Source: Deltaproteobacteria bacterium (GTDB lineage Bacteria > Desulfobacterota > Binatia > UBA1149 > JAJCZL01). From it: a stretch of DNA of 64,000 nucleotides. A program made the translations under genes and the position numbers. The notes beneath the pieces were generated by a model. That model was not told the origin of the DNA and did no database searches. It saw only the letters and a program-made list of their open reading frames with translations. Numbering within the stretch: position 1 is the first letter of the stretch; each line of letters opens with the position of its first letter. The DNA lies in NCBI GenBank assembly GCA_029262415.1, contig JAJCZL010000068.1, positions 2,372 to 66,371 on the forward strand, in the 5' to 3' direction. Shown here one piece after another: positions 29,652 through 41,266 of the stretch.

Positions 29652-29813
29652 TATTATAGCTCCCTATGTAACGCGTAAATCTACTCCACTCTCTTCTGTC
29701 TTGTCCACCCATTTGGACGGGTTTCCCCGCTAAAGCGGGAGAGCAGACTATGGTCCTAACCCGAATGGGGGCATCGTTGAGCGGCGCATCCCCAAAGGCT
29801 AGGAGTAGTCGCA

Positions 29814-30951
29814 ATGAACGCACCCGATCTCTCTCACCTCGGCGACGAGCGGATCTTCGTCGATCCGACGCTTTACGCAGACTAAGAAGCCTGGCACGCC
29901 GCCACGACGTCTTTCACGACACCTTGAGGGCGGTGTGGATGCCGATCGAGTCCTACCAGAAGCGCACCGAAATGGGGCTGGATCTTCGCTCGCTGGTTCA
30001 GGTTGACGGCAAAGAGCACCGCGACCTGCGCGCGCTCACCAACGAATGGTTCAAACCGGCCAACCTGCGCAAGCGCACTGAAGCCGCGCTGCCCGTGCTG
30101 GCGCGCAAATTTGTCGACCGCATGAAAGACATGGGCGGTGCGTGCGACTTCGCGCGCGACATTGCGCTTTTTTATCCTCTGCACGTCATCATGGGGATCC
30201 TCGGCGTACCCGAACAAGACGAGCCTTACATGCTCGAGATCACGCAGAATCTTTTCGGATCCGAGGATCCCGATCTGAGCGGCGTCTCGTTCACCGATCC
30301 TGCGTTCTTCACCGAGTTAATGAAGATGGCCCAGTACTTTCAAGGCATCACCGATGAGCGTCGGGCCCACCCGACGCTCGACGTTGCCTCGACGCTCGCC
30401 AACGGACAGATCGACGGGCAACCACTGAGCGATATCCAGGCGATGGGATACTACGCGATCATCGCCACCGCCGGCCACGACACCACTTCGAGTTCGCTCG
30501 CAGGCGGCCTGGAGGCGCTCATCCGGCGTCCCGCCGTGATGCAGGAACTCATCGACGACCCCTCGCTGATCCCCAACGCGGTTGAGGAGATCGTCCGCTG
30601 GGTAACGCCGGCGCGGCACTTTCGGCGCGAGGCACAAGAGGACACCGAAGTTAACGGCGCCCGCTTCAAGAAAGGCGAGTACGTGTTTCTTTTCCATTTG
30701 TCTGCGAATCGAGACGAGACCGTGTTCGAAAACCCGATGGAGTTCGACATTCACCGCCCAATGCGCGTGAGCATCTCGCGTTGGGAATCGGCGTACACTT
30801 TTGCCTCGGCGCACACCTTGCGCTGAGGGAAACGAGCCCCGACTCCGTTTCCGTAGATACCTGGGATTCACGGTCGGGCTATCGCGACTGCAACAATCAC
30901 GGCCCGGCGGCCTGTTTGCGCCGGACCCGGCGGGTGCGCTAGGCTGGCCCA
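29814..30951 (+). pseudogene. cytochrome P450, disrupted (N-terminal stop/deletion and C-terminal frameshift)
   Basis: RBS AGGAG + MNAPDLSHLGDERIFVDPTLYAD hits TAA at 29883; P450 core continues in another frame (ORF 29750..30826: AGHDTTS I-helix, EIVRW K-helix); heme loop HLALGIGVHFCLGAHLA is in a third frame after about 30757. Confidence 0.5.
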
Positions 30952-31037: not shown

Positions 31038-31089
31038 GGCAAGAGGTGGCAAGACGTGAGCAAGAGGTGAGCAAGAGGTGAGCAAGATG
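31038..31089. repeat. 5 x 10-11-bp tandem repeat (A/G)GCAAGA(G/C)GTG spanning the translation start of the 31078 gene
   Basis: ggcaagaggtg gcaagacgtg agcaagaggtg agcaagaggtg agcaagATG; each unit carries GAGGTG (SD-like + GTG). Confidence 0.65.
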
Positions 31090-32868
31090 GGCACTTCGAC
31101 CATAACCCTTACACATGTGCAGCGAACCTTCGCATTGGTGGCTGTATACCTCGTTGTTTCGCTAAGCCTCGCCAAACCCGTGAGCGCGCAGAATCCTTGC
31201 CAAGTCGCCGACAACGGCAGCGGGACGGTGTCTTTGCCGCCGGCAGGTTGTCAGTACCTAAGCCCCAGCGAGGTCCACATGATCATCGCCGGGCTTCCGC
31301 CCGGCACCACCATCGAACTGTCACCGATCCACAAGACCTTCATCAATGCTGCGGCCGGCGCGGGCGGTACGCTCGGCGGTGATATCGAGACCTTCGACTC
31401 CACGCTCGAATTCGGAATGATCGGGACCGGCGCCCTGTCGGGGTTCTCACGTTTGCTGCAAATTCCGGTGGCGGTAGAGACGCATACGGCTCCACGCTTG
31501 CCGAACGATCCCATTCAGAGCTTTGACACCGAGATCTTTCGCATCTCAGGTGAACTGTTCGGCGACCCGGACTTTTGTACCCTGCGAGTGACCGCGGGTG
31601 CGGGCAACGCCTTGCCGAGCCCGGGGCGCACCACGCTGGTGCAGTTGCCGTCGGGCGACTTCAACGTCGACAGCTTTTTCGACATCAGCTACCAGATCGA
31701 GTTCGTCGGATGCCCGGGCAGCGTACTCGAGGGCTTCGCGGGAACGACCTCCGATACGATCAAGATGCGTACCGGTGAGCCGGTGTTGCCCACGTGCACT
31801 GTCATCGACAACGGTAGCGGGACGGTCGATCTGCCGCCCCCGGGTTGTGGATACGTCTCGCCGAGCGATTTGCACCTGATGATCGACGGCTTACCGCCGG
31901 GCACAGAGATCCGCGTAAGCCCGGTACACAAGGGCTTCTTCGTGAACGCGCAAGGACCCGGCGGCAATCTTGGGGGCGAATTCGAGCAGTTCGACTCGCA
32001 GCTCGAGATGGCTATGCAAGGCACCGGTGTCTTGGCAGGCTTCCAGAGGCTGATCTCGTTGCCGCTGGCGGGCGAATCGCACATCGGACCCCGCACGCCG
32101 GGCGACCCCGTACAGACTTTCCCAAACGACATGTTCCAGCAGCAAGGACAGATCTTTGGCGATCCGGACTTCGCGCAGCTCCAAGTCAGCGCCGGAACCT
32201 CCTTAGGCCTGCCGAGCGGTGGTCAGACTACGTTGGCCCGGTTGCCCAGCGGAGAGTTTCAGGTGGATAGCTTCTTCGACATTTCCTACCAGATCGATTT
32301 CGTCGGCGCACCGGGAAGCGCGCTCGACGGATTCGCCGGCAGCACCCAGGGGACGGCGCGGATGCAGGCCGCCAACATCGAGCAGCCCGGCGCGTGTTGT
32401 GTGGAGTTTGGCTGCTTGGAAGAAGTCACCGAGCAGTGCTTCGCGATTGGCGGTCAGCCACAGGGCAGCGGAAGCACATGCGGCGGAATCATTTTCCGTG
32501 GCCTGCCCGGTGGATCGATTTGCACGCCCCCTCCGACCACCACAAGCACGACGACGAGCACCACAACGAGTACGACGACGACCACGACGACAAGTACGAC
32601 TACAAGTACCACGACGGGTCCGACGACAACCACGACCCTGCCGAGCAGCTGCAACTGCGGTGACCCGGTTATGCCGGGGGGAGCATTTTTGCGCGCCGTG
32701 ACCTCCACCGATGCGCTGTTCACGCTTCAAGCGGGCGTCGGAGCACAGGTATGTGCGGCGTGTACCTGCGACGTCAACAACTCCGGAGCGGTCAACGCGA
32801 CCGATGCGCTGATTGTTCTGCAGTCCGCGGTCGGCCAACCCGTAGTGCTTAACTGTCCCGTCCTCTAG
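31078..32868 (+). CDS. secreted protein with two about 200-aa tandem repeat domains, Thr/Ser linker and C-terminal dockerin-like module
   Basis: Signal peptide; DNGSGTVxLPPxGCxYxSPS...FFDISYQIEFVG repeated twice; TTTSTTTSTTT linker; C-terminal DVNNSGAVNATDALIVLQSAVG. Confidence 0.6.
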   Translation: MSKMGTSTITLTHVQRTFALVAVYLVVSLSLAKPVSAQNPCQVADNGSGTVSLPPAGCQYLSPSEVHMIIAGLPPGTTIELSPIHKTFINAAAGAGGTLGGDIETFDSTLEFGMIGTGALSGFSRLLQIPVAVETHTAPRLPNDPIQSFDTEIFRISGELFGDPDFCTLRVTAGAGNALPSPGRTTLVQLPSGDFNVDSFFDISYQIEFVGCPGSVLEGFAGTTSDTIKMRTGEPVLPTCTVIDNGSGTVDLPPPGCGYVSPSDLHLMIDGLPPGTEIRVSPVHKGFFVNAQGPGGNLGGEFEQFDSQLEMAMQGTGVLAGFQRLISLPLAGESHIGPRTPGDPVQTFPNDMFQQQGQIFGDPDFAQLQVSAGTSLGLPSGGQTTLARLPSGEFQVDSFFDISYQIDFVGAPGSALDGFAGSTQGTARMQAANIEQPGACCVEFGCLEEVTEQCFAIGGQPQGSGSTCGGIIFRGLPGGSICTPPPTTTSTTTSTTTSTTTTTTTSTTTSTTTGPTTTTTLPSSCNCGDPVMPGGAFLRAVTSTDALFTLQAGVGAQVCAACTCDVNNSGAVNATDALIVLQSAVGQPVVLNCPVL

Positions 32869-35800
32869 ATGACCGGACTCCTCACGCGGGTTGCGCTCGA
32901 CTCTCCGCGCGCGGCCGTGGCAATAGGGGTCTTGATCACCGCGGTATTCGCAACGGGAATCGCGGATCTCGAGCTTCGCACCGGCGGCGATATCCTGCGG
33001 CCCGAGGGGCATCCTTTCGTCGTTCAAAGCGGCGACGACAACCTGCGCTTTCGCGAGCCGCGCCAGGCGATTGTCGTGGTGTCCTCGCGCAAGGGCGGCC
33101 CCGCAGTGGCTTCGCCTCAGGGGTTTCGGTTTCTCAAGCGCATCGACAGCGAACTCAGAACGCTGCCCGCGGTACGCGCGGCCGGGGTACTTTCGCTTGC
33201 GCGACTCGCACGCCCGGTCCGCGAAGACGGATACTTTGGCCTACGCCGCCGCCTCGATCAGGTTCCCGACGACCCCGTTCGCTTCGCAGCACTGCTCGCC
33301 GAGCTTCGCAGCCAACCTCGTACCGACGGACTGCTGCTGGCGAGTGACGGCCGCCTCGCGGCGGTGTACGTCCCACTGAGCGAGGATCGCTCGGTCGGCG
33401 AGGCTATAGGCGAATTGCAGGCCTGGGCGTCGCAATCCATCAACGCACCTTTCGCAGTTCAACTCACCGGCCCGGAGACCGCCGAGGCGACACTCGGGAT
33501 CATGGTGCTGCGCGACCTCGCAGTACTAGTGCCGGTGATGCTCGCGGTGATCGTGACGGTGCTGTTCGTGGTTTTCCGCAATCCGGGCGGAGTGCTGATT
33601 CCAATGATCGAGTCGCTCGTAGTCTTGCTGTGGACGCTGGGAGCGATGGGCTGGCTCGGAGTGCCCGTGACACTTGTCACGACGATTCTACCGGTGGTGT
33701 TGATGACGATGGCGATCACCGATGAAATCCACCTGCTCGAACGCGTCGAGGCCCACCGTGAACAGACCTCCAGCGGTTCGATGAGGGAGGCGGTCGAACT
33801 TTCGCTCGACGAAGTCGGCGCTCCAATTGTATTGACCTCAATCACTACCGCCCTCGCCTTCGCATCCTTCCTTAGCGCCGATATGGCGCCGGTGCGGCAG
33901 TTCGGCGTATTCACCGCATTCGGCATCCTCGCAGCGATGTCCCTTACCTTTGTCTGGATCGCGCCGTTGATCGTGCTGCTCCCCGAGTCGTGGTTTCGCC
34001 GACGCGCGCGCCGGCGATGGCTGGCGGCCGGCGTCGGCCTGGGGCGCTGGGCGGCGCGCCGTCCGAATCTAGCGCTCGCAGTCGGCGCGCTCGCTGTCAC
34101 CGCCGCAGCCGGCGGCCTTCCTGCGCTTCAGGTCCAAGATTCATGGATCGCCAACTTCGCCCCCTCCGACCGGCTGGTCGAGGCCGAGACACGCTACAAC
34201 CAGTCGTTCTGGGGGTCTTACCGCTTCGACATCACCGTGCAGGGGCCGCGCGAGTTGTTCTACAGCCCGGACGGCGCGGCGCTGGTGGAACAAATAGAAG
34301 AGTTAGCCGAGAAAGCCCCGCACACTCAGGCCGCTCTGAGTCACTTGGCGACCCTGCGTGAGATTGCCGAGGCGCTCGGACTGTCAACACACATTTCGTC
34401 GCTTACCGCGCTCGAAGTCGCCGATCTGGCCACGCTTGCAGAGATGGCCGAGGGGCGTTCGCGGTTGCGCGAGTTCATCACCGAAAGCGATGACGCGGTA
34501 CGCGTTCGCCTTTTCATGCGCGATGCCGACTATCGGCGCGCCGATGAGTTGCGTGGCTACCTCGACCGGCATCTCCCGCAACTGCTGCACGGGTTTGAAG
34601 TCGACTATCACTACAGCGGCGACCTGCCGGCCGCGCTCGCGACCGTCCACGCGATTGTCGGCAACCAGGTAAGCTCGGTCGCTTGGGCTCTGCTTACCGT
34701 CGGCGCGGTGCTTCTGGTGATGACCCGCCCGGGTGGGATGCTGTTGTGCTTGGTGCCCGTCGCCGTCGGAGTCGTGGTCGTACTCGGCGCTATGGGGTAC
34801 GCGCGGATTCCACTCGGTATCGCCACCAGTATGTTCGCCGGCCTGACAGTCGGCGTCGGCGTCGACTTCGGCATTCATCTGCTGCATCGCTACCGTCTAG
34901 AGCGCAGCAGAGGCCGCTCGCCTGACCGAGCTGTGGAGGCCGCCGTCGAAACGGCGGGGACAGCCATCGGGTGGGACGCTTTGGTGCTCGCGGCCGGTTT
35001 CTTGGTTCTCATGTTTTCCGCCGTGCGTCCCAACCACAGTCTCGGCGTGTTGCTTGCGGCGGCGATGGCGGCGTGTTCTGCAGGTGCCATGCTGTTCTCA
35101 CCGCGCTTACTCCGTTGGCTCGCGGCCCTCGCTTTGGTCTTTCCGTTGATTGCACCCCCCAACACCACCGCTGCCGAACCGTCGGCCACGACGGCGACCG
35201 AGGCGTGCAAGCGTCCCGAAAACGCCGAAGCTGCAGCGATAATTGCTGAACTAGAGCAGCGCTTCCGCAGCCGTCCGTTGATCACGCGGATGCAGATCGG
35301 AACGGTCTATGGGGAAAAGCACCCACTGCACGCACACTTCAAGGAGGAGCCCTACGAGAAGACTCTGTGGGGGGTCTTCGACGGCGACTCCTCGGTCACG
35401 CGCCTGCTTTACGTATTCTCTGCGCCGGGCCGCTTAGCCGGGACCACGCTACTCATTCACGATTTCGCCGAACCGGCCAGAACCGACGGGATCTGGATCT
35501 ACCTGCGCTCGTTTGAAACCTTTACCAAGCTCGACGCCCGCTCCGAGCGGACCATGGTGCCGGGAACCGCCCTTACCTACGAAGACTCGCGCGGCTTCAT
35601 ACCGCGCGACAAGTACCGTTTCACGTTTACCGAACTCGACGGCATCAAGCCGCGTGAGCACGAGAAACTCGTCTTGGGTTGCCCCGCGAGCGAGCGAATC
35701 CGTGAGAATCTCGGGTATGGATCGGTGGTGGTGCTCATAGATACGCATCTAGGGCTGGTTCGAACGATCGTCTACCGTGACCTCGGCGGCAAGACATTGA

Positions 35801-36111
35801 AGCGTTACGATGTTGTTGCCACCAGCAAACTTGGCGACGAAACGCTGGCTGCCGCGGTACGCATGGAACACCTCACCGATGGGTTCGCCACCACGCTCGA
35901 CTACCGGTACTGGCGGCCGAGCTCCCCGCCCCCGGCTGCGATCTACGATGCGGAAATAGGCAAAGAGAAGTTCTTACCGCGTCTGCAACGGTTGCTCGGC
36001 GACGGCGAGGCGGGTGGACGCCTGCGCAAGGAGATCGAAGCCGCCGACAAAAGCGTGGCCGAATACGAGAAGCGCGAGCGAGAGCGCGCGGTCAAGACCG
36101 AGAGGCCGTGA
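32869..36111 (+). CDS. MMPL/RND-superfamily exporter with fused C-terminal LolA-like domain
   Basis: ATG immediately follows the upstream TAG; two 6-TM bundles with RND/MMPL-like motifs; about 320-aa soluble C-terminal tail (IWIYLRSFETFTK...GTALTYEDSRG) resembling LolA_like lipoprotein-sorting proteins. Confidence 0.65.
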   Translation: MTGLLTRVALDSPRAAVAIGVLITAVFATGIADLELRTGGDILRPEGHPFVVQSGDDNLRFREPRQAIVVVSSRKGGPAVASPQGFRFLKRIDSELRTLPAVRAAGVLSLARLARPVREDGYFGLRRRLDQVPDDPVRFAALLAELRSQPRTDGLLLASDGRLAAVYVPLSEDRSVGEAIGELQAWASQSINAPFAVQLTGPETAEATLGIMVLRDLAVLVPVMLAVIVTVLFVVFRNPGGVLIPMIESLVVLLWTLGAMGWLGVPVTLVTTILPVVLMTMAITDEIHLLERVEAHREQTSSGSMREAVELSLDEVGAPIVLTSITTALAFASFLSADMAPVRQFGVFTAFGILAAMSLTFVWIAPLIVLLPESWFRRRARRRWLAAGVGLGRWAARRPNLALAVGALAVTAAAGGLPALQVQDSWIANFAPSDRLVEAETRYNQSFWGSYRFDITVQGPRELFYSPDGAALVEQIEELAEKAPHTQAALSHLATLREIAEALGLSTHISSLTALEVADLATLAEMAEGRSRLREFITESDDAVRVRLFMRDADYRRADELRGYLDRHLPQLLHGFEVDYHYSGDLPAALATVHAIVGNQVSSVAWALLTVGAVLLVMTRPGGMLLCLVPVAVGVVVVLGAMGYARIPLGIATSMFAGLTVGVGVDFGIHLLHRYRLERSRGRSPDRAVEAAVETAGTAIGWDALVLAAGFLVLMFSAVRPNHSLGVLLAAAMAACSAGAMLFSPRLLRWLAALALVFPLIAPPNTTAAEPSATTATEACKRPENAEAAAIIAELEQRFRSRPLITRMQIGTVYGEKHPLHAHFKEEPYEKTLWGVFDGDSSVTRLLYVFSAPGRLAGTTLLIHDFAEPARTDGIWIYLRSFETFTKLDARSERTMVPGTALTYEDSRGFIPRDKYRFTFTELDGIKPREHEKLVLGCPASERIRENLGYGSVVVLIDTHLGLVRTIVYRDLGGKTLKRYDVVATSKLGDETLAAAVRMEHLTDGFATTLDYRYWRPSSPPPAAIYDAEIGKEKFLPRLQRLLGDGEAGGRLRKEIEAADKSVAEYEKRERERAVKTERP

Positions 36112-36139: not shown

Positions 36140-36541
36140 CTAAGGGAGGTTGCCGATGTTTCGTTGTCTGAGCGCCGAGACTGTCGCGAGCGCGGTAAAA
36201 TCGCGGTCGTGGTGCAGCAGTTCCAAGTCGTGGCGAATTGCGCTGGCTGCGATCAGGCAATCGACCGAGCTGCGCACCGCGGCTCCGCCCCTGCGTGCTT
36301 GGCGGTAGAGGTCGGCGGCGTGCAAATAGAGCGATGCGTCGGCAGGTGAATCGACGGTCGGCATCGCCATGAACGCATCACGCGCGAGCCGAAAGGCACG
36401 CTCGTTGTCGAGCCCTTGCAGGGCCTCTTGAATAACGGGCAAGCAGGTTACCAACTCGTCGAAGTCGGCGAGTGCTTCGAGGTCGAGCGGGTTGTTGTTT
36501 CGAAACACATCGACCCATACCGAGGTGTCGACCAATGTCAC
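36140..36541 (-). CDS. vapC: PIN-domain toxin VapC
   Basis: VTLVDTSVWVD N-terminus (GTG start overlapping upstream stop as GTGA); conserved acidic residues; paralog of 57166..57570. Confidence 0.7.
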   Translation of the reverse strand: MTLVDTSVWVDVFRNNNPLDLEALADFDELVTCLPVIQEALQGLDNERAFRLARDAFMAMPTVDSPADASLYLHAADLYRQARRGGAAVRSSVDCLIAASAIRHDLELLHHDRDFTALATVSALRQRNIGNLP

Positions 36542-36669
36542 TTCTTGCCTTTCCTGTAGACCGCCCGGTCTTTGCGCATTTCGGAAAGATCGCCTTGCCA
36601 GGCGCCCGATCCGCGCAGTTCGAGGATGCGTCTCGCCGATGGCCGCGAAAGCCATAACACCGAAAGCAT
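36538..36669 (-). CDS. truncated VapB-like antitoxin remnant (C-terminal half only)
   Basis: +1-frame ORF MLSVLWLSRPSARRILELRGSGAWQGDLSEMRKDR... ends TGA overlapping vapC GTG; matches the C-terminus of VapB at 57557..57769 but lacks the RHH N-terminal half. Confidence 0.25.
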   Translation of the reverse strand: MLSVLWLSRPSARRILELRGSGAWQGDLSEMRKDRAVYRKGKK

Positions 36670-36773: not shown

Positions 36774-37037
36774 ATGCAGGTCGGAGTGCGTGAATTGAAG
36801 CAGAAACTATCGAAGTACCTGGAGCGTGCCGCTGCAGGTGAGACGATCACCGTCACCGACCACGGGGTGCCCAAGGCCGTGCTCGGCCCGATGCCGGGCG
36901 TCGACCGAATTGCGCAGGGGATTGCCGAAGGGTGGATTACACCGGCCGAACAGCCGCCTGATCCTAAGCGCAAATGGAGTCCGTCGAAATCCCAGCGTCG
37001 GATCCAAGATGTACTGGACGAGGATCGGGGGGATTGA
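36774..37037 (+). CDS. Phd/YefM-family antitoxin
   Basis: MQVGVRELKQKLSKYLERAAAGETITVTDHGVPKAVL is typical of Phd/YefM. Confidence 0.7.
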   Translation: MQVGVRELKQKLSKYLERAAAGETITVTDHGVPKAVLGPMPGVDRIAQGIAEGWITPAEQPPDPKRKWSPSKSQRRIQDVLDEDRGD

Positions 37038-37438
37038 GTCTCTACATCGACACCAGCGCGCTGATGAAAGTTTACGTCAACGAGAACGCGAGTGAAGAGT
37101 GTCAACGGATACTCAAGTCCGATCCTACGTGGATTACTGCACGGCACACGTGGGTAGAGGTGATGCGCAACCTTCCGCGTCTGTTGGATCGGCCCGAGCT
37201 TCGACGTCAGGAGAAAGAGTTCCGCAGCGACTGGCGCAGCATGTCGGTGATCGATCTTGACCAACAGACTTGTGAACGCGCGGCAGAGATCGCGCGGACG
37301 CATACTGTTAGGACGCTCGACGCGCTCCATTTGGCAGCGGCGGTGCGAGCCGGCGGAGCCTCGCTCCCCTTCGTGACCTACGATCTCCGCCAGGCCCAAG
37401 CGGCGCGTGCGCTCGGGCTGACGGTGCTTGGCAGCTGA
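37034..37438 (+). CDS. vapC: PIN-domain toxin VapC
   Basis: LSLYIDTSALMKVYV N-terminal PIN motif; TTG start overlaps phd TGA (aTTGA). Confidence 0.65.
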   Translation: MSLYIDTSALMKVYVNENASEECQRILKSDPTWITARHTWVEVMRNLPRLLDRPELRRQEKEFRSDWRSMSVIDLDQQTCERAAEIARTHTVRTLDALHLAAAVRAGGASLPFVTYDLRQAQAARALGLTVLGS

Positions 37439-38693: not shown

Positions 38694-39809
38694 CTATCTT
38701 TCAAGTGTGAAGCGCGCGATTTGTGCGCGGTGATCGCTCGGCGCTGCGGCGAGCAGGCGGTAGTTTGCGAAAGCGATGTGCCGGTTGCCGAGAATGTGGT
38801 CGATCCCCAATACGGGAAGCACCGCCGGAAAACTAAGGTGCGGCCCATGTCCGGCTTCGAGGTGGGCGTTGCGCAGGCCGAGTGTGGTGACGTTGTCGGC
38901 GTAGTAGGGCGCGTTGAAGTCGCCGGCCGCCACCACCGGAGTATCGGTGTGTTGGCGCAGCCACGCGCCGAGCATTGCGGACTCCTCTTTGTGCCAGTTG
39001 GCCGATGATGCCACGTGCACGGTCATTTTGAGCATGCCGTCTTCGGTCCAAATCGGCTTGGTTGCGTGGACGTTTACAATCCACATCTCACTGCCGTCGA
39101 TCTCGGCTCTTACCGCAAAGGTTCGGTAGTCGGTGATGCCGAATGCAACCTCGACGCCGGCTTCGTCGCTCAGTCGGCTACGACGAATCGCAGTTGCCAA
39201 TGCGAACACGCCGGTGCCCTTGCGCTGCGGCATTTGCTCGGGCTCGACCCAGTAGAACGCGAAGTCGGGAAAGGCCGCCACGTACCTCGCGCGGTTATTT
39301 AGACGGAGTTCTTGGAAGCAGAGTACGTCGATGTTTTCGGCGGCGACGATGGCGGGGAGGGTTTTGGTGAGTTCGCTTTTCTGATGGATATTGAGCGCGA
39401 GTAGGCCGAGCTCTGTGCGCTTGGTGGTTGCCGGCGCGACGGTCTGAGTAGTCGCGCGTGTGGTCGCGCGCGTACCGGCCGCGCGAGCGGTGGCGCTTGT
39501 GCCGCCGCCCCAGCCAAGACTGTCTAGGAAAAGCACCGTGCAGATTGTCGAGATTATCAATGCCGGGTTTGCGAAAAACGCAGGGCCGGCAGAACCCGCG
39601 CTGCGTCGCCCGCGTCGTCCGCGTAGCGAGAACGCGGCGACAGCGAATGCGACGACCGCAAGCACGATGCGCGGTGTGTATGCGAACAAGATACCGATCC
39701 GCCAGGCGTCAAGCCCGACATAGGGCGCGACCGCACTCAAAACCAGCAGTGCGAAAAGTGCGTTGCGTGCGAACTGCCCCACACCCCGCGAAACCGAGCG
39801 GTCGGTCAA
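38694..39809 (-). CDS. membrane-anchored endonuclease/exonuclease/phosphatase (EEP) family protein
   Basis: N-terminal TM helices; LLALNIHQ...VLCFQEL EEP motif. Confidence 0.6.
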   Translation of the reverse strand: MTDRSVSRGVGQFARNALFALLVLSAVAPYVGLDAWRIGILFAYTPRIVLAVVAFAVAAFSLRGRRGRRSAGSAGPAFFANPALIISTICTVLFLDSLGWGGGTSATARAAGTRATTRATTQTVAPATTKRTELGLLALNIHQKSELTKTLPAIVAAENIDVLCFQELRLNNRARYVAAFPDFAFYWVEPEQMPQRKGTGVFALATAIRRSRLSDEAGVEVAFGITDYRTFAVRAEIDGSEMWIVNVHATKPIWTEDGMLKMTVHVASSANWHKEESAMLGAWLRQHTDTPVVAAGDFNAPYYADNVTTLGLRNAHLEAGHGPHLSFPAVLPVLGIDHILGNRHIAFANYRLLAAAPSDHRAQIARFTLER

Positions 39810-41266
39810 CGCCGGTACATCCTGCGCGGCGATTCGAGCAAGGTATACAGCACGTTGTCGACGAAAGCCGGGTCGCTGGTCATGTCGAGATGGTCGGTGA
39901 ACAGAAACGTAACCGACGACCAGTCTATTGGGCTCTGGATTGACGGCGACCAGTGGCCGCCCGCGCGCTCATCCATCACCGCGCTGGTGCGCAGCACCCG
40001 GCCGTCACCCGCTGCGAGGGCCGAGACGCGCACCGTGCCGGTGTTTCTGTTTACGCTCAGCCGCGCCGGGGTATCAGCTGCGTCGCCTGCGTACAAAACC
40101 AGGCGTAACGCATCGGGGCGTTTGGCAGGGCGGTCGATTGCCGCGTGAAAGCGTTGTGCCTGTAGCAGCGATTTGTGCAAATGATCGCGTGCGATCCGAC
40201 GTCGCTCGGCTCGGTTGCCTACGCCGGGGAGCAGCCGCACCAGTACGCCGTCTTGTTGCGGATCGAGGATACCCCAGCCGAGTTCATCCCAAAGTGCTGC
40301 GTCGTAGAGGTCGCCGAACGGCGTTGTATCGTTACGGGCGTCAACAACCATCGCGTGGCGCGTGCGCGGCATCAGCTGGTAGAGCCCGGGCATGGTACCG
40401 ATCAGTGCAGGCGGATAGTCGGGTAAGAAGAAGGGGAACTCGACGCCGTTGATCAGGTTTAACACCGGATCTATCGCGCCGGCGTTGGGGGTGCCGACCA
40501 GGATCGCATTCTCGACGTTGCGCGCGCCCGCCCAGGTGAGCTTGGGCAGGCTGCCGTCGATGGGCAAGGGGGCGGCGCCGTAACGCAGATAATAGCGCGT
40601 GAGCAGTCCGCCCATCGAGTGCGCAACGATGTCGAACTTTACGTTCGGATTATCGACGCCGTAGCGCAGTTTAAGCTGCGCACTTACGTAGGCGCGTTTC
40701 TCTTGGATGAACGCATCCAGGCGCGCGGCGTTGGCGGCGTTGTCGCGTCGCCAGTCATACGCGAACTGAAAACACGTAAAGTGCCCGTCGGCGTACTGCA
40801 CCGCGCCGGCTTCGGCGAGTTCTTGGTCTTTGTATCCGCCGGCACCGAGCGTGCGCAGAATATTGACGTAGGCGCGCAACTGCAGCGGCAAGCCGAACAA
40901 GCTCAGTTTGAAACGATCGAGCACGCCGGCAGGCGCTGCGTTGTCGGTCAGTTCCGCAAGCGGCGTGCCGATACGCATCGGCACTGCCACCGAGCGCGCC
41001 CCGGCGGGATCACTTGGGTTGGCGAAGTCGCCCGAGAATGCACCCCAAACGGTCTCACCGGTGTCGGCGTCGACCAGGCGCGAGCCGAGTACGCCCGGGA
41101 TCACGATGATCGGGTTGCGCGTCTCGTCCGATTCCTGCGCGGCGCGGTTATACAGACCGCCGAGGTCGGGGATGTTCAACGCCAGGCTGCAGCCCGACGC
41201 CGCGGTCGCCAGCGCGGCTGCGGCTGCGAGCAACTTTGCGCGGAGTCCTGGTGGTTTGATCGGCAT
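39806..41266 (-). CDS. lipoprotein, LCAT-like alpha/beta-hydrolase (lipase/acyltransferase)
   Basis: Lipobox ATAASGC; IVIPGVLGSRL and nucleophile elbow AHSMGG. Confidence 0.6.
   Translation of the reverse strand: MPIKPPGLRAKLLAAAAALATAASGCSLALNIPDLGGLYNRAAQESDETRNPIIVIPGVLGSRLVDADTGETVWGAFSGDFANPSDPAGARSVAVPMRIGTPLAELTDNAAPAGVLDRFKLSLFGLPLQLRAYVNILRTLGAGGYKDQELAEAGAVQYADGHFTCFQFAYDWRRDNAANAARLDAFIQEKRAYVSAQLKLRYGVDNPNVKFDIVAHSMGGLLTRYYLRYGAAPLPIDGSLPKLTWAGARNVENAILVGTPNAGAIDPVLNLINGVEFPFFLPDYPPALIGTMPGLYQLMPRTRHAMVVDARNDTTPFGDLYDAALWDELGWGILDPQQDGVLVRLLPGVGNRAERRRIARDHLHKSLLQAQRFHAAIDRPAKRPDALRLVLYAGDAADTPARLSVNRNTGTVRVSALAAGDGRVLRTSAVMDERAGGHWSPSIQSPIDWSSVTFLFTDHLDMTSDPAFVDNVLYTLLESPRRMYRR

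Follow-up and report, generated by a model that had tools for sequence, protein, structure and literature searches.

We analysed a 64,000-nucleotide stretch of a deltaproteobacterial genome assembly (contig JAJCZL010000068.1, positions 2,372 to 66,371 of the forward strand; hereafter the window) with regard to a transporter gene at window positions 32869..36111 on the + strand. The gene is one uninterrupted open reading frame (ORF) of 1080 codons plus stop and codes, in this order, for an MMPL/RND transporter core, a 13th hydrophobic segment and a LolA-like domain that is predicted to be periplasmic. A co-oriented gene for a secreted repeat protein of 596 aa, here called REP (31078..32868, +), lies directly upstream, with its TAG stop codon abutting the ATG of the transporter gene. 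A sequence-only reading of the window had proposed an MMPL/RND exporter fused to a LolA-like tail; the interval it gave, 35150-36111, corresponds to residues 761-1080, and the peptide it quoted (IWIYLRSFETF...YEDSRG) to residues 875-909. Profile searches, structure prediction and structural comparison, described in the following, bore out this proposal.

Architecture of the fused protein

Both parts of the protein were recognised by Pfam above the respective cut-offs. MMPL (PF03176) matched two stretches, one in each half of the core, with 88.3 bits (cut-off 20.5), and LolA_like (PF17131, also called TP_0789-like) matched residues 845-1026 (35401..35946, +) with 54.3 bits (cut-off 30), or 57.6 bits when the tail was searched by itself. 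Custom hidden Markov models (HMMs) assigned residues 3-752 to the MMPL part and residues 766-1076 (35164..36096, +) to the tail domain in a single reading frame, and the junction between the two contains neither a stop codon nor an intergenic remnant. Since an identical protein is on record (P0001) and the same architecture was found in independent assemblies at 37-65% identity, the fusion is not an assembly error. With its MMPL core, segment 13, C-terminal PF17131 domain and length within the range of about 1040-1130 aa, the protein belongs to the fused MMPL-LolA_like architecture and is one more example, found in an uncultured high-GC lineage, of an architecture that is known but functionally uncharacterised. 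A scan for promoters and terminators gave no signal exceeding the shuffled expectation.

The transporter core (residues 1-745; 32869..35103, +) comprises 12 helices as judged from hydropathy and the distribution of Lys and Arg residues, the topology being taken from a Kyte-Doolittle scan and not from a trained predictor. Two large periplasmic loops, residues 36-206 (171 aa) and 422-599 (178 aa), lie between transmembrane helices (TM) 1 and 2 and between TM7 and TM8, respectively, and Lys and Arg are enriched in the cytoplasmic loops, with nine in the TM6-TM7 loop and six in the TM10-TM11 loop. Asp285 in TM4 (motif AITDEIHLL; 33721..33723, +) and its pseudo-symmetric partner Asp666 in TM10 (motif GVDFGIHLL; 34864..34866, +) are putative proton-relay residues; Asp is found at these positions in 141 and 142 of the 144 aligned relatives, and His288 in TM4 and His670 in TM10 are each kept in 137. 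Since these Asp/His pairs are retained in at least 137 of the 144 relatives, the RND machinery appears intact and the pump competent.

In order to place the core within the superfamily, we compared it to the NCBIfam models. The top model was HAE3 (TIGR00921) with 181 bits, below its cut-off of 352, and on this score the core is HAE3-like only. The HpnN models scored far under their cut-offs (NF052374, 41 versus 1100 bits; TIGR03480, 87 versus 752 bits), by which membership in this family was rejected, and no hopanoid biosynthesis cluster was met among the neighbours within about 8 kb. The hopanoid transporter HpnN and the mycobacterial MmpL3-type proteins, which export lipids toward the periplasmic side, have the same RND fold as the window protein, with 12 helices, two periplasmic loops and a mid-membrane Asp relay. 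Unlike the window protein, they lack a fused LolA-like domain, and the C-terminal extension of MmpL3 is cytoplasmic.

The tail was modelled with AlphaFold2 as residues 767-1080, using a 48-sequence alignment, with a mean predicted local distance difference test (pLDDT) score of 92.9. About 250 aa of the roughly 315-aa tail form the LolA-fold core; the remainder consists of a helix at the N-terminus and, at the C-terminus, a long charged helix (EAGGRLRKEIEAADKSVAEYEKRERERAVKT; 36007..36099, +), which was assigned by DSSP to tail residues 281-311 of the model and is also conserved in the family consensus. A Foldseek search of the PDB with this model returned LolA-superfamily proteins with E-values of 8e-17 to 7e-12 and target-normalised TM-scores (TMt) of 0.73-0.83. 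Closest among these were 3bk5 (E 8e-17, TMt 0.79), the DUF1329 protein 4z48 (E 2e-16, TMt 0.83), LolA3 of Porphyromonas gingivalis / Flavobacterium johnsoniae (P. gingivalis LolA3 9tp6, E 2e-15, TMt 0.82) and NE2245 (3buu). In these proteins, as in the tail, the LolA-type barrel is enlarged, with additional strands, and a C-terminal helix is present, but they are stand-alone secreted proteins and only 13-18% identical to it. Geometry was weaker for canonical LolA, RseB/MucB and LprG (TMt about 0.3-0.5), and true LolA structures gave TMt values of about 0.45-0.5 with a root-mean-square deviation (rmsd) of 7-10 Å. Since the Foldseek ranking agrees with a profile search of the PDB sequences, in which 3bk5 was found at 9e-12, the tail is, as modelled, a barrel of the LolA superfamily that belongs to the enlarged LolA3/DUF1329 subgroup.

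At the level of Pfam profiles, the match to DUF1329 (PF07044) remained below threshold (E 0.0028; 17.4 versus 23.1 bits), and the canonical LolA (PF03548) and LolB profiles gave no match at E-values up to 1. Canonical LolA and LolB have the superfamily fold in common with the tail and act as chaperones for hydrophobic cargo in the periplasm; however, their partner is an ABC transporter (LolCDE) and not an RND pump, and their cargo is an acylated protein.

Distribution and origin of the fusion

The sequence-only reading regarded the covalent fusion as unusual and the LolA_like domain as normally encoded by a separate gene next to MMPL/HpnN-type exporters. The first of these views did not hold, as the fused form dominates in the subfamily. 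Among species-representative genomes, 11 of the 12 loci encoding a tail relative carry a fused gene, these being metagenome-assembled genomes that carry the labels Binatia, Myxococcota, Deltaproteobacteria, Deferrimicrobium and Spirochaetaceae. When 5.8 billion proteins were searched with a word index, about 45 clusters from several sources were found to combine MMPL and PF17131 at 37-65% identity, and an HMM search run exhaustively over 1.84 billion representatives yielded 1203 relatives, 83 of them with E<=1e-30. Of the best 150 of these 1203, about 27 have at least 1000 aa and carry the domain C-terminally, and a further 20 or so resemble N-terminally truncated fused fragments. At least 68 full-length fused relatives were collected from independent assemblies, isolate genomes included, down to about 25-40% identity. 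RefSeq also holds fused proteins from cultured Gammaproteobacteria; the distant fused set includes WP_051264035.1 of Teredinibacter turnerae (RefSeq) and a protein from Halioglobus, each annotated as 'outer membrane lipoprotein-sorting protein', and a fused protein of Thalassolituus oleivorans, TOL_3187, was described in 2018 by Gregson et al. (PMC6304351). The fusion is thus real and not rare, and the architecture is already catalogued and widespread. Some apparent exceptions turned out to be broken genes: several seemingly stand-alone LolA_like matches are fragments that start inside TM12, and one seemingly 'split' locus (L007) contains a fused gene that is covered at low depth, frameshifted and in pieces.

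The gammaproteobacterial proteins TOL_3187, WP_051264035.1 and MCB1679153.1 show the same order of parts as the window protein, i.e. two MMPL halves, segment 13 and a C-terminal PF17131/DUF1329-type domain, in a total length of about 1045-1064 aa; TOL_3187 itself was outside our alignments. They differ from the window protein in that they have a longer cytoplasmic linker ahead of segment 13, lack the cysteine pair described below and branch off in the MMPL tree as a separate, deep clade. Their genes neighbour a DUF1302 barrel gene or lipid-synthesis genes, whereas the window gene neighbours the REP gene. In a neighbour-joining tree of the MMPL cores, calculated without support values, the window protein falls inside a clade of at least 28 members, nearly all of them fused. 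Further fused lineages are scattered among unfused ones, with the fused clade of the Gammaproteobacteria at a great distance. As far as a tree without support values allows, this speaks against a single fusion event, and the interleaving together with the distant gammaproteobacterial clade suggests that the architecture is old or recurrent.

Split versions do exist, as the sequence-only reading had assumed, although by the NCBIfam thresholds given above the pump is not of the HpnN type. At the split loci L026 and L025, a 755-aa MMPL gene ends just past TM12, and a 263-aa LolA_like gene begins ten bases on with its own signal peptide (MNPRAVIVLLLALTASVAG/EES, the slash marking the end of the signal peptide), followed by an overlapping gene for a DUF1302 outer-membrane barrel. 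The gene order of L026 is that of the fused gene, with the signal peptide where helix 13 stands. From these sequences, split MMPL and LolA_like genes appear to have been joined by read-through into the fused gene, with the signal peptide retained as helix 13. This true split cassette was met only among the more distant relatives (L026, L025). Close stand-alone LolA_like genes (L003-L006, L017) were rejected as further examples: they adjoin REP genes, and no MMPL gene lies in the 6-10 kb covered at these loci. Both the L026/L025 cassette and the AmeABCD system likewise pair an HAE3/MMPL-type pump with a periplasmic LolA-superfamily protein, but as separate polypeptides and in company with a DUF1302 barrel (in Ame also a YCF48-like protein), which the window lacks; AmeB is moreover a DUF1329 protein proper and larger (451 aa) than the window tail. 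No DUF1302 barrel or YCF48/BNR gene was found among the ORFs scanned around the window gene; such components are present beside the gamma-type fused gene at L024 and the split genes at L026.

Some relatives depart from the common layout. In the fused protein P0028 (L019:7418-11056, 1200 aa), the LolA-like domain is interrupted by an insertion of about 55 aa, so that the HMM matches it in two pieces, and the linker past helix 13 is longer and rich in Gly, Ala and Arg. A second, divergent MMPL gene without tail (L009:1104-3782, about 890 aa) lies 3.8 kb upstream of the fused gene at this locus. Unfused MMPL relatives at L021:9570-16247 and L002:1-7547 stand beside recurring DUF1702, FG-GAP/UnbV_ASPIC, RnfD-like and large polyketide synthase genes, a context that hints at the export of a polyketide-derived lipid in this unfused sister group.

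Segment 13 and the location of the tail

In solved RND proteins, the chain ends in the cytoplasm after TM12, and a plain C-terminal extension would therefore be cytoplasmic. The periplasmic location claimed for the tail by the sequence-only reading is nevertheless the predicted one, but only owing to a feature that this reading had omitted: TM12 is followed by a 13th hydrophobic segment (residues 749-763, RWLAALALVFPLIAP; 35113..35157, +), which comes after PRLLR, has the properties of an internal signal peptide or signal anchor and would place the tail in the periplasm. The sequence after TM12, RLLR-WLAALALVFPLIAPP-NTTA/AEP, has the anatomy of a signal peptide. Segment 13 was found in all 68 full-length fused relatives, with Lys or Arg ahead of it in 64, and stands where, at the split loci, the product of the separate LolA_like gene has its N-terminal signal peptide. 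A second indication comes from two cysteines, Cys780 just past segment 13 (35206..35208, +) and Cys938 inside the barrel (35680..35682, +). Of the relatives, 82 have both cysteines, 35 have neither and 13 have only one of the two, counts that ignore phylogeny. This co-variation fits a probable disulfide and hence an oxidising compartment. Segment 13, the cysteine pair and the signal peptides of the stand-alone homologues all point to an extracytoplasmic tail.

Past segment 13, residues T766-T767-A768 (35164..35172, +) form a signal-peptidase-I-type motif, with predicted cleavage at A768/A769. This raises the question of whether the tail stays attached to the pump. Segment 13 could be a working internal signal peptide after which signal peptidase I cuts behind A768 and frees a soluble LolA-like shuttle; the fusion would then serve only to couple pump and carrier in synthesis, stoichiometry and location. 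Such a processing is known from the Bradyrhizobium FbcH cytochrome b/c1 precursor, which is cut at an internal signal peptide. In favour of it, all fused relatives combine segment 13 with a basic n-region, a short h-region and a c-region of small residues, the equivalent segment at the split loci is a genuine signal peptide at the N-terminus, and a strict A-x-A motif occurs past segment 13 in 67% of the fused proteins compared to 4% past TM1 and 7% past TM7. However, the stretch past segment 13 is rich in Ala, Ser and Pro, with 27% Ala compared to 6-7% past TM1 and TM7, and a frequency of roughly 60% would be expected from the Ala composition alone. The motif count adds little beyond this bias and was therefore rejected as proof of cleavage, being only suggestive; stretches rich in Ala, Pro and Ser are also ordinary linkers in high-GC genomes. 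Low-Ala gammaproteobacterial members keep clean motifs such as ...HAKA/D, ...ARA/QT and ...RANA/RE, and two fused relatives, P0313 and P0335, have the lipobox-like sequences LVLTGC and GLAAC immediately past segment 13, which suggest an internal lipoprotein signal peptide in some lineages. We rate the release of the tail at somewhat less than an even chance. The conservation of a signal-peptidase-type motif at the junction, which indicates that the tail may be cut off, is new in this analysis.

The upstream REP protein and other neighbouring genes

The REP protein consists of a signal peptide, two units of about 196 aa, a Cys-rich piece, a Thr/Ser-rich linker read from the sequence (32527..32640, +) and a weak dockerin-like C-terminal segment (32767..32838, +; Pfam Dockerin_1 E 0.0037, below cut-off). 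Unit 1 (196 aa; 31192..31779, +) and unit 2 (31792..32373, +) matched the custom REP2 HMM at 1e-94 and 1e-89, respectively. Unit 1 was modelled by AlphaFold2 as eight long antiparallel beta-strands with a pLDDT of 93.4. Foldseek gave no significant PDB match for the unit model; the weak matches are small barrels that bind hydrophobic ligands, e.g. OprG with a query-normalised TM-score (TMq) of 0.46. At least 871 relatives from many phyla form the REP family, which is characterised by units of about 196 aa with the motifs DPDF, LPSPG and VDSFFDI.Y and by interchangeable C-terminal ends for surface sorting (FlgD-Ig/T9SS, IPTL-CTERM, PEP-CTERM, dockerin), and for which no relative was found in Pfam, NCBIfam or the PDB.

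The window REP protein is homologous (BLASTP 1e-20) to multi-repeat proteins encoded directly upstream of the genuine stand-alone LolA_like genes at L003-L006. REP genes flank the fused gene at six of about 12 loci according to the broad HMM, or at eight if weaker matches are counted. Besides the window (31078-32868), REP genes were located at L003:2538-5978, L014:2362-3912, L020:7001-9007, L021:7001-9247 and L022:7001-9457. Hand-picked members of the REP family stood beside MMPL genes in all three cases, but in a wider metagenome sample this applied to only three of 13 well-flanked loci. We therefore downgraded a general linkage between REP and MMPL genes: their adjacency is enriched, not obligatory. 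The abutting stop and start codons and the recurrent adjacency suggest that REP is coupled to the exporter and would be its likely functional partner. Also new in this analysis is the translational coupling of the exporter to an uncatalogued secreted repeat protein whose unit is modelled as an eight-stranded barrel. In other phyla, the MMPL genes beside REP (L020:9056-11719, L021:4160-6751 and L022:9491-12187) code for 863-898 aa, about 100 aa above the usual unfused length; the extra length appears to be due to insertions between HMM pieces, around HMM positions 460-490, and not to a C-terminal tail.

Within about 8 kb, the neighbours of the fused gene are an apparently disrupted cytochrome P450 gene, the REP gene and genes for PIN toxins, Rpe, GFA, EEP and an LCAT-like protein. 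The P450 gene (about 29690-30900, +) is spread over three reading frames: one contains its body (ORF 29750-30826), a second the heme loop LALGIGVHFCLGAHLA close to the 3' end and a third the N-terminal part (MNAPDLSHLGDERIFVDPTLYAD, ending in a stop codon). The gene is either a pseudogene or affected by indel errors of the assembly. Directly downstream of the exporter gene lie PIN-domain (VapC-like) ORFs and a small putative antitoxin ORF (36140-36655, -; 36774-37037, +; 36974-37438, +), which are likely toxin-antitoxin pairs; 36140-36655, the one of these that was scanned, matched PIN at 1e-15. A tandem 2.6-5 kb downstream codes for an LCAT-like lipase/acyltransferase with a weak Pfam match (39806-41266, -) and a membrane protein of the endonuclease/exonuclease/phosphatase family (38694-39809, -), for which a lipid-related tie to the exporter is possible.

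Discussion

With the architecture, the fold, the logic of the topology and the conservation established in this analysis, we propose, at a probability of about 0.6, that the window protein is an exporter of a lipid or other hydrophobe that is powered by the proton-motive force and has a built-in periplasmic acceptor. The RND pump, of the MMPL/HAE3-like branch, would pick a lipidic or other hydrophobic molecule out of the inner membrane and pass it to the cavity of the LolA-like domain in the periplasm, from where it would be delivered to the envelope or the cell surface; in the window lineage, the translationally coupled secreted REP protein would be the likely downstream partner. The fused gene may be regarded as the single-gene form of a cassette of an MMPL pump and a secreted LolA_like protein, often followed by a DUF1302 outer-membrane barrel.

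Such an exporter is favoured because the contexts of the relatives point to a hydrophobic cargo. The fused gene of T. turnerae comes after a cluster of genes for lipid synthesis (KAS III, acyl-AMP ligase, acyltransferase, PPTase and reductase), and that of the Halioglobus type (L024; MCB1679153.1) overlaps a DUF1302 gene. TOL_3187 was induced 42-fold on the n-C28 alkane (PMC6304351), and AmeABCD of Castellaniella defragrans, made up of an HAE3 pump, a DUF1329, a DUF1302 and a YCF48-like protein, confers monoterpene tolerance and dye efflux (PMC6394551). In several Proteobacteria, cofitness was seen for DUF1302, DUF1329, BNR and RND genes, and DUF1329, DUF1302 and RND genes are located in hydrocarbon-degradation islands (bioRxiv 10.1101/072470). 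Such genes also matter in Pseudomonas on Tween 20 and fatty esters, the latter in P. putida.

Several observations weigh against this proposal. The window contains neither a lipid-synthesis gene nor a gene for an outer-membrane barrel within about 8 kb of the fused gene, and the gene of P0002 (L001), which is the closest relative at full length, stands among different neighbours except for a convergent REP gene. The large unfused sister group (L002) appears to work without an adjacent LolA_like gene, so that the domain is not obligatory for such pumps. The low rate of adjacent MMPL genes in the wider REP family, as given above, counts here as well. Finally, the deletion of lolA3 in Flavobacterium was without phenotype (PMC11885536), LolA3 being the nearest characterised structural relative of the tail.

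Apart from the release of the tail discussed above, two further alternatives deserve attention, both of which we consider unlikely. The LolA-like domain might be held by helix 13 and act mainly as a bridge or docking site for an outer-membrane or surface partner, in the manner of a membrane fusion protein, and not itself as the carrier of the cargo. AmeB (DUF1329) and AmeC were proposed as periplasmic adaptors (PMC6394551), the conserved long charged helix at the C-terminus might serve for contacts between proteins, and the overlap of the L024 gene with a barrel gene would suit a docking function. The fold of the tail is, however, of the lipid-binding LolA/LprG/RseB type, no outer-membrane barrel gene adjoins the window gene, and the roles of carrier and adaptor are mutually compatible. 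Alternatively, the system might take up or handle external hydrophobic substrates such as alkanes, terpenes or fatty esters instead of exporting an endogenous lipid. The alkane induction of TOL_3187, the importance of DUF1329, DUF1302 and RND genes on Tween 20 and fatty esters, their location in hydrocarbon-degradation islands and the P450 gene just upstream in the window would all agree with this. On the other hand, characterised RND pumps move their substrates outwards, the AmeABCD data fit efflux and tolerance, the context in T. turnerae is biosynthetic, and the P450 gene is disrupted by frameshifts.

Of the lipid or lipoprotein export machine suggested by the sequence-only reading, the export of a lipid or other hydrophobe remains plausible; the lipoprotein part found no support. 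An analogue of the Lol pathway with an RND core in place of LolCDE is very improbable: we know of no RND pump that extracts lipoproteins, and only the database name 'outer membrane lipoprotein-sorting protein' and the common superfamily fold speak for it, against the missing LolA/LolB profile matches, the poor superposition on true LolA and the weak LolB binding of LolA3, which is without the conserved Arg (PMC13103446). Least credible of all, to the point of being negligible, is a merger of two adjacent genes by a sequencing or assembly indel: the frameshifted P450 gene indicates that the contig or genome does have indels and L007 is the reverse case, but neither stands up to the clean junction and the many independent fused relatives.

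Exporter with built-in acceptor and cleavable tail could be combined into one scheme, in which a natural bacterial polyprotein, processed by signal peptidase I or, where a lipobox is present, by the lipoprotein pathway, gives rise to an RND pump and a free LolA-like shuttle, with the co-transcribed REP protein as extracellular acceptor. We put this forward tentatively and consider it more doubtful than the release of the tail by itself. If true, it would constitute a previously unrecognised route by which a hydrophobic molecule leaves the inner membrane for the cell surface, in several phyla.

The transit of highly hydrophobic molecules across the Gram-negative periplasm is poorly understood beyond the Lol, Lpt and Mla systems. 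Pairs of HAE3/MMPL pumps and proteins of the LolA superfamily are met repeatedly in hydrocarbon degraders, in connection with terpene tolerance and beside lipid-synthesis clusters. The fused form sets the ratio of pump to carrier at 1:1 and makes the partnership explicit, and in cultured carriers such as Teredinibacter and Thalassolituus it is a convenient object for structural and biochemical work.

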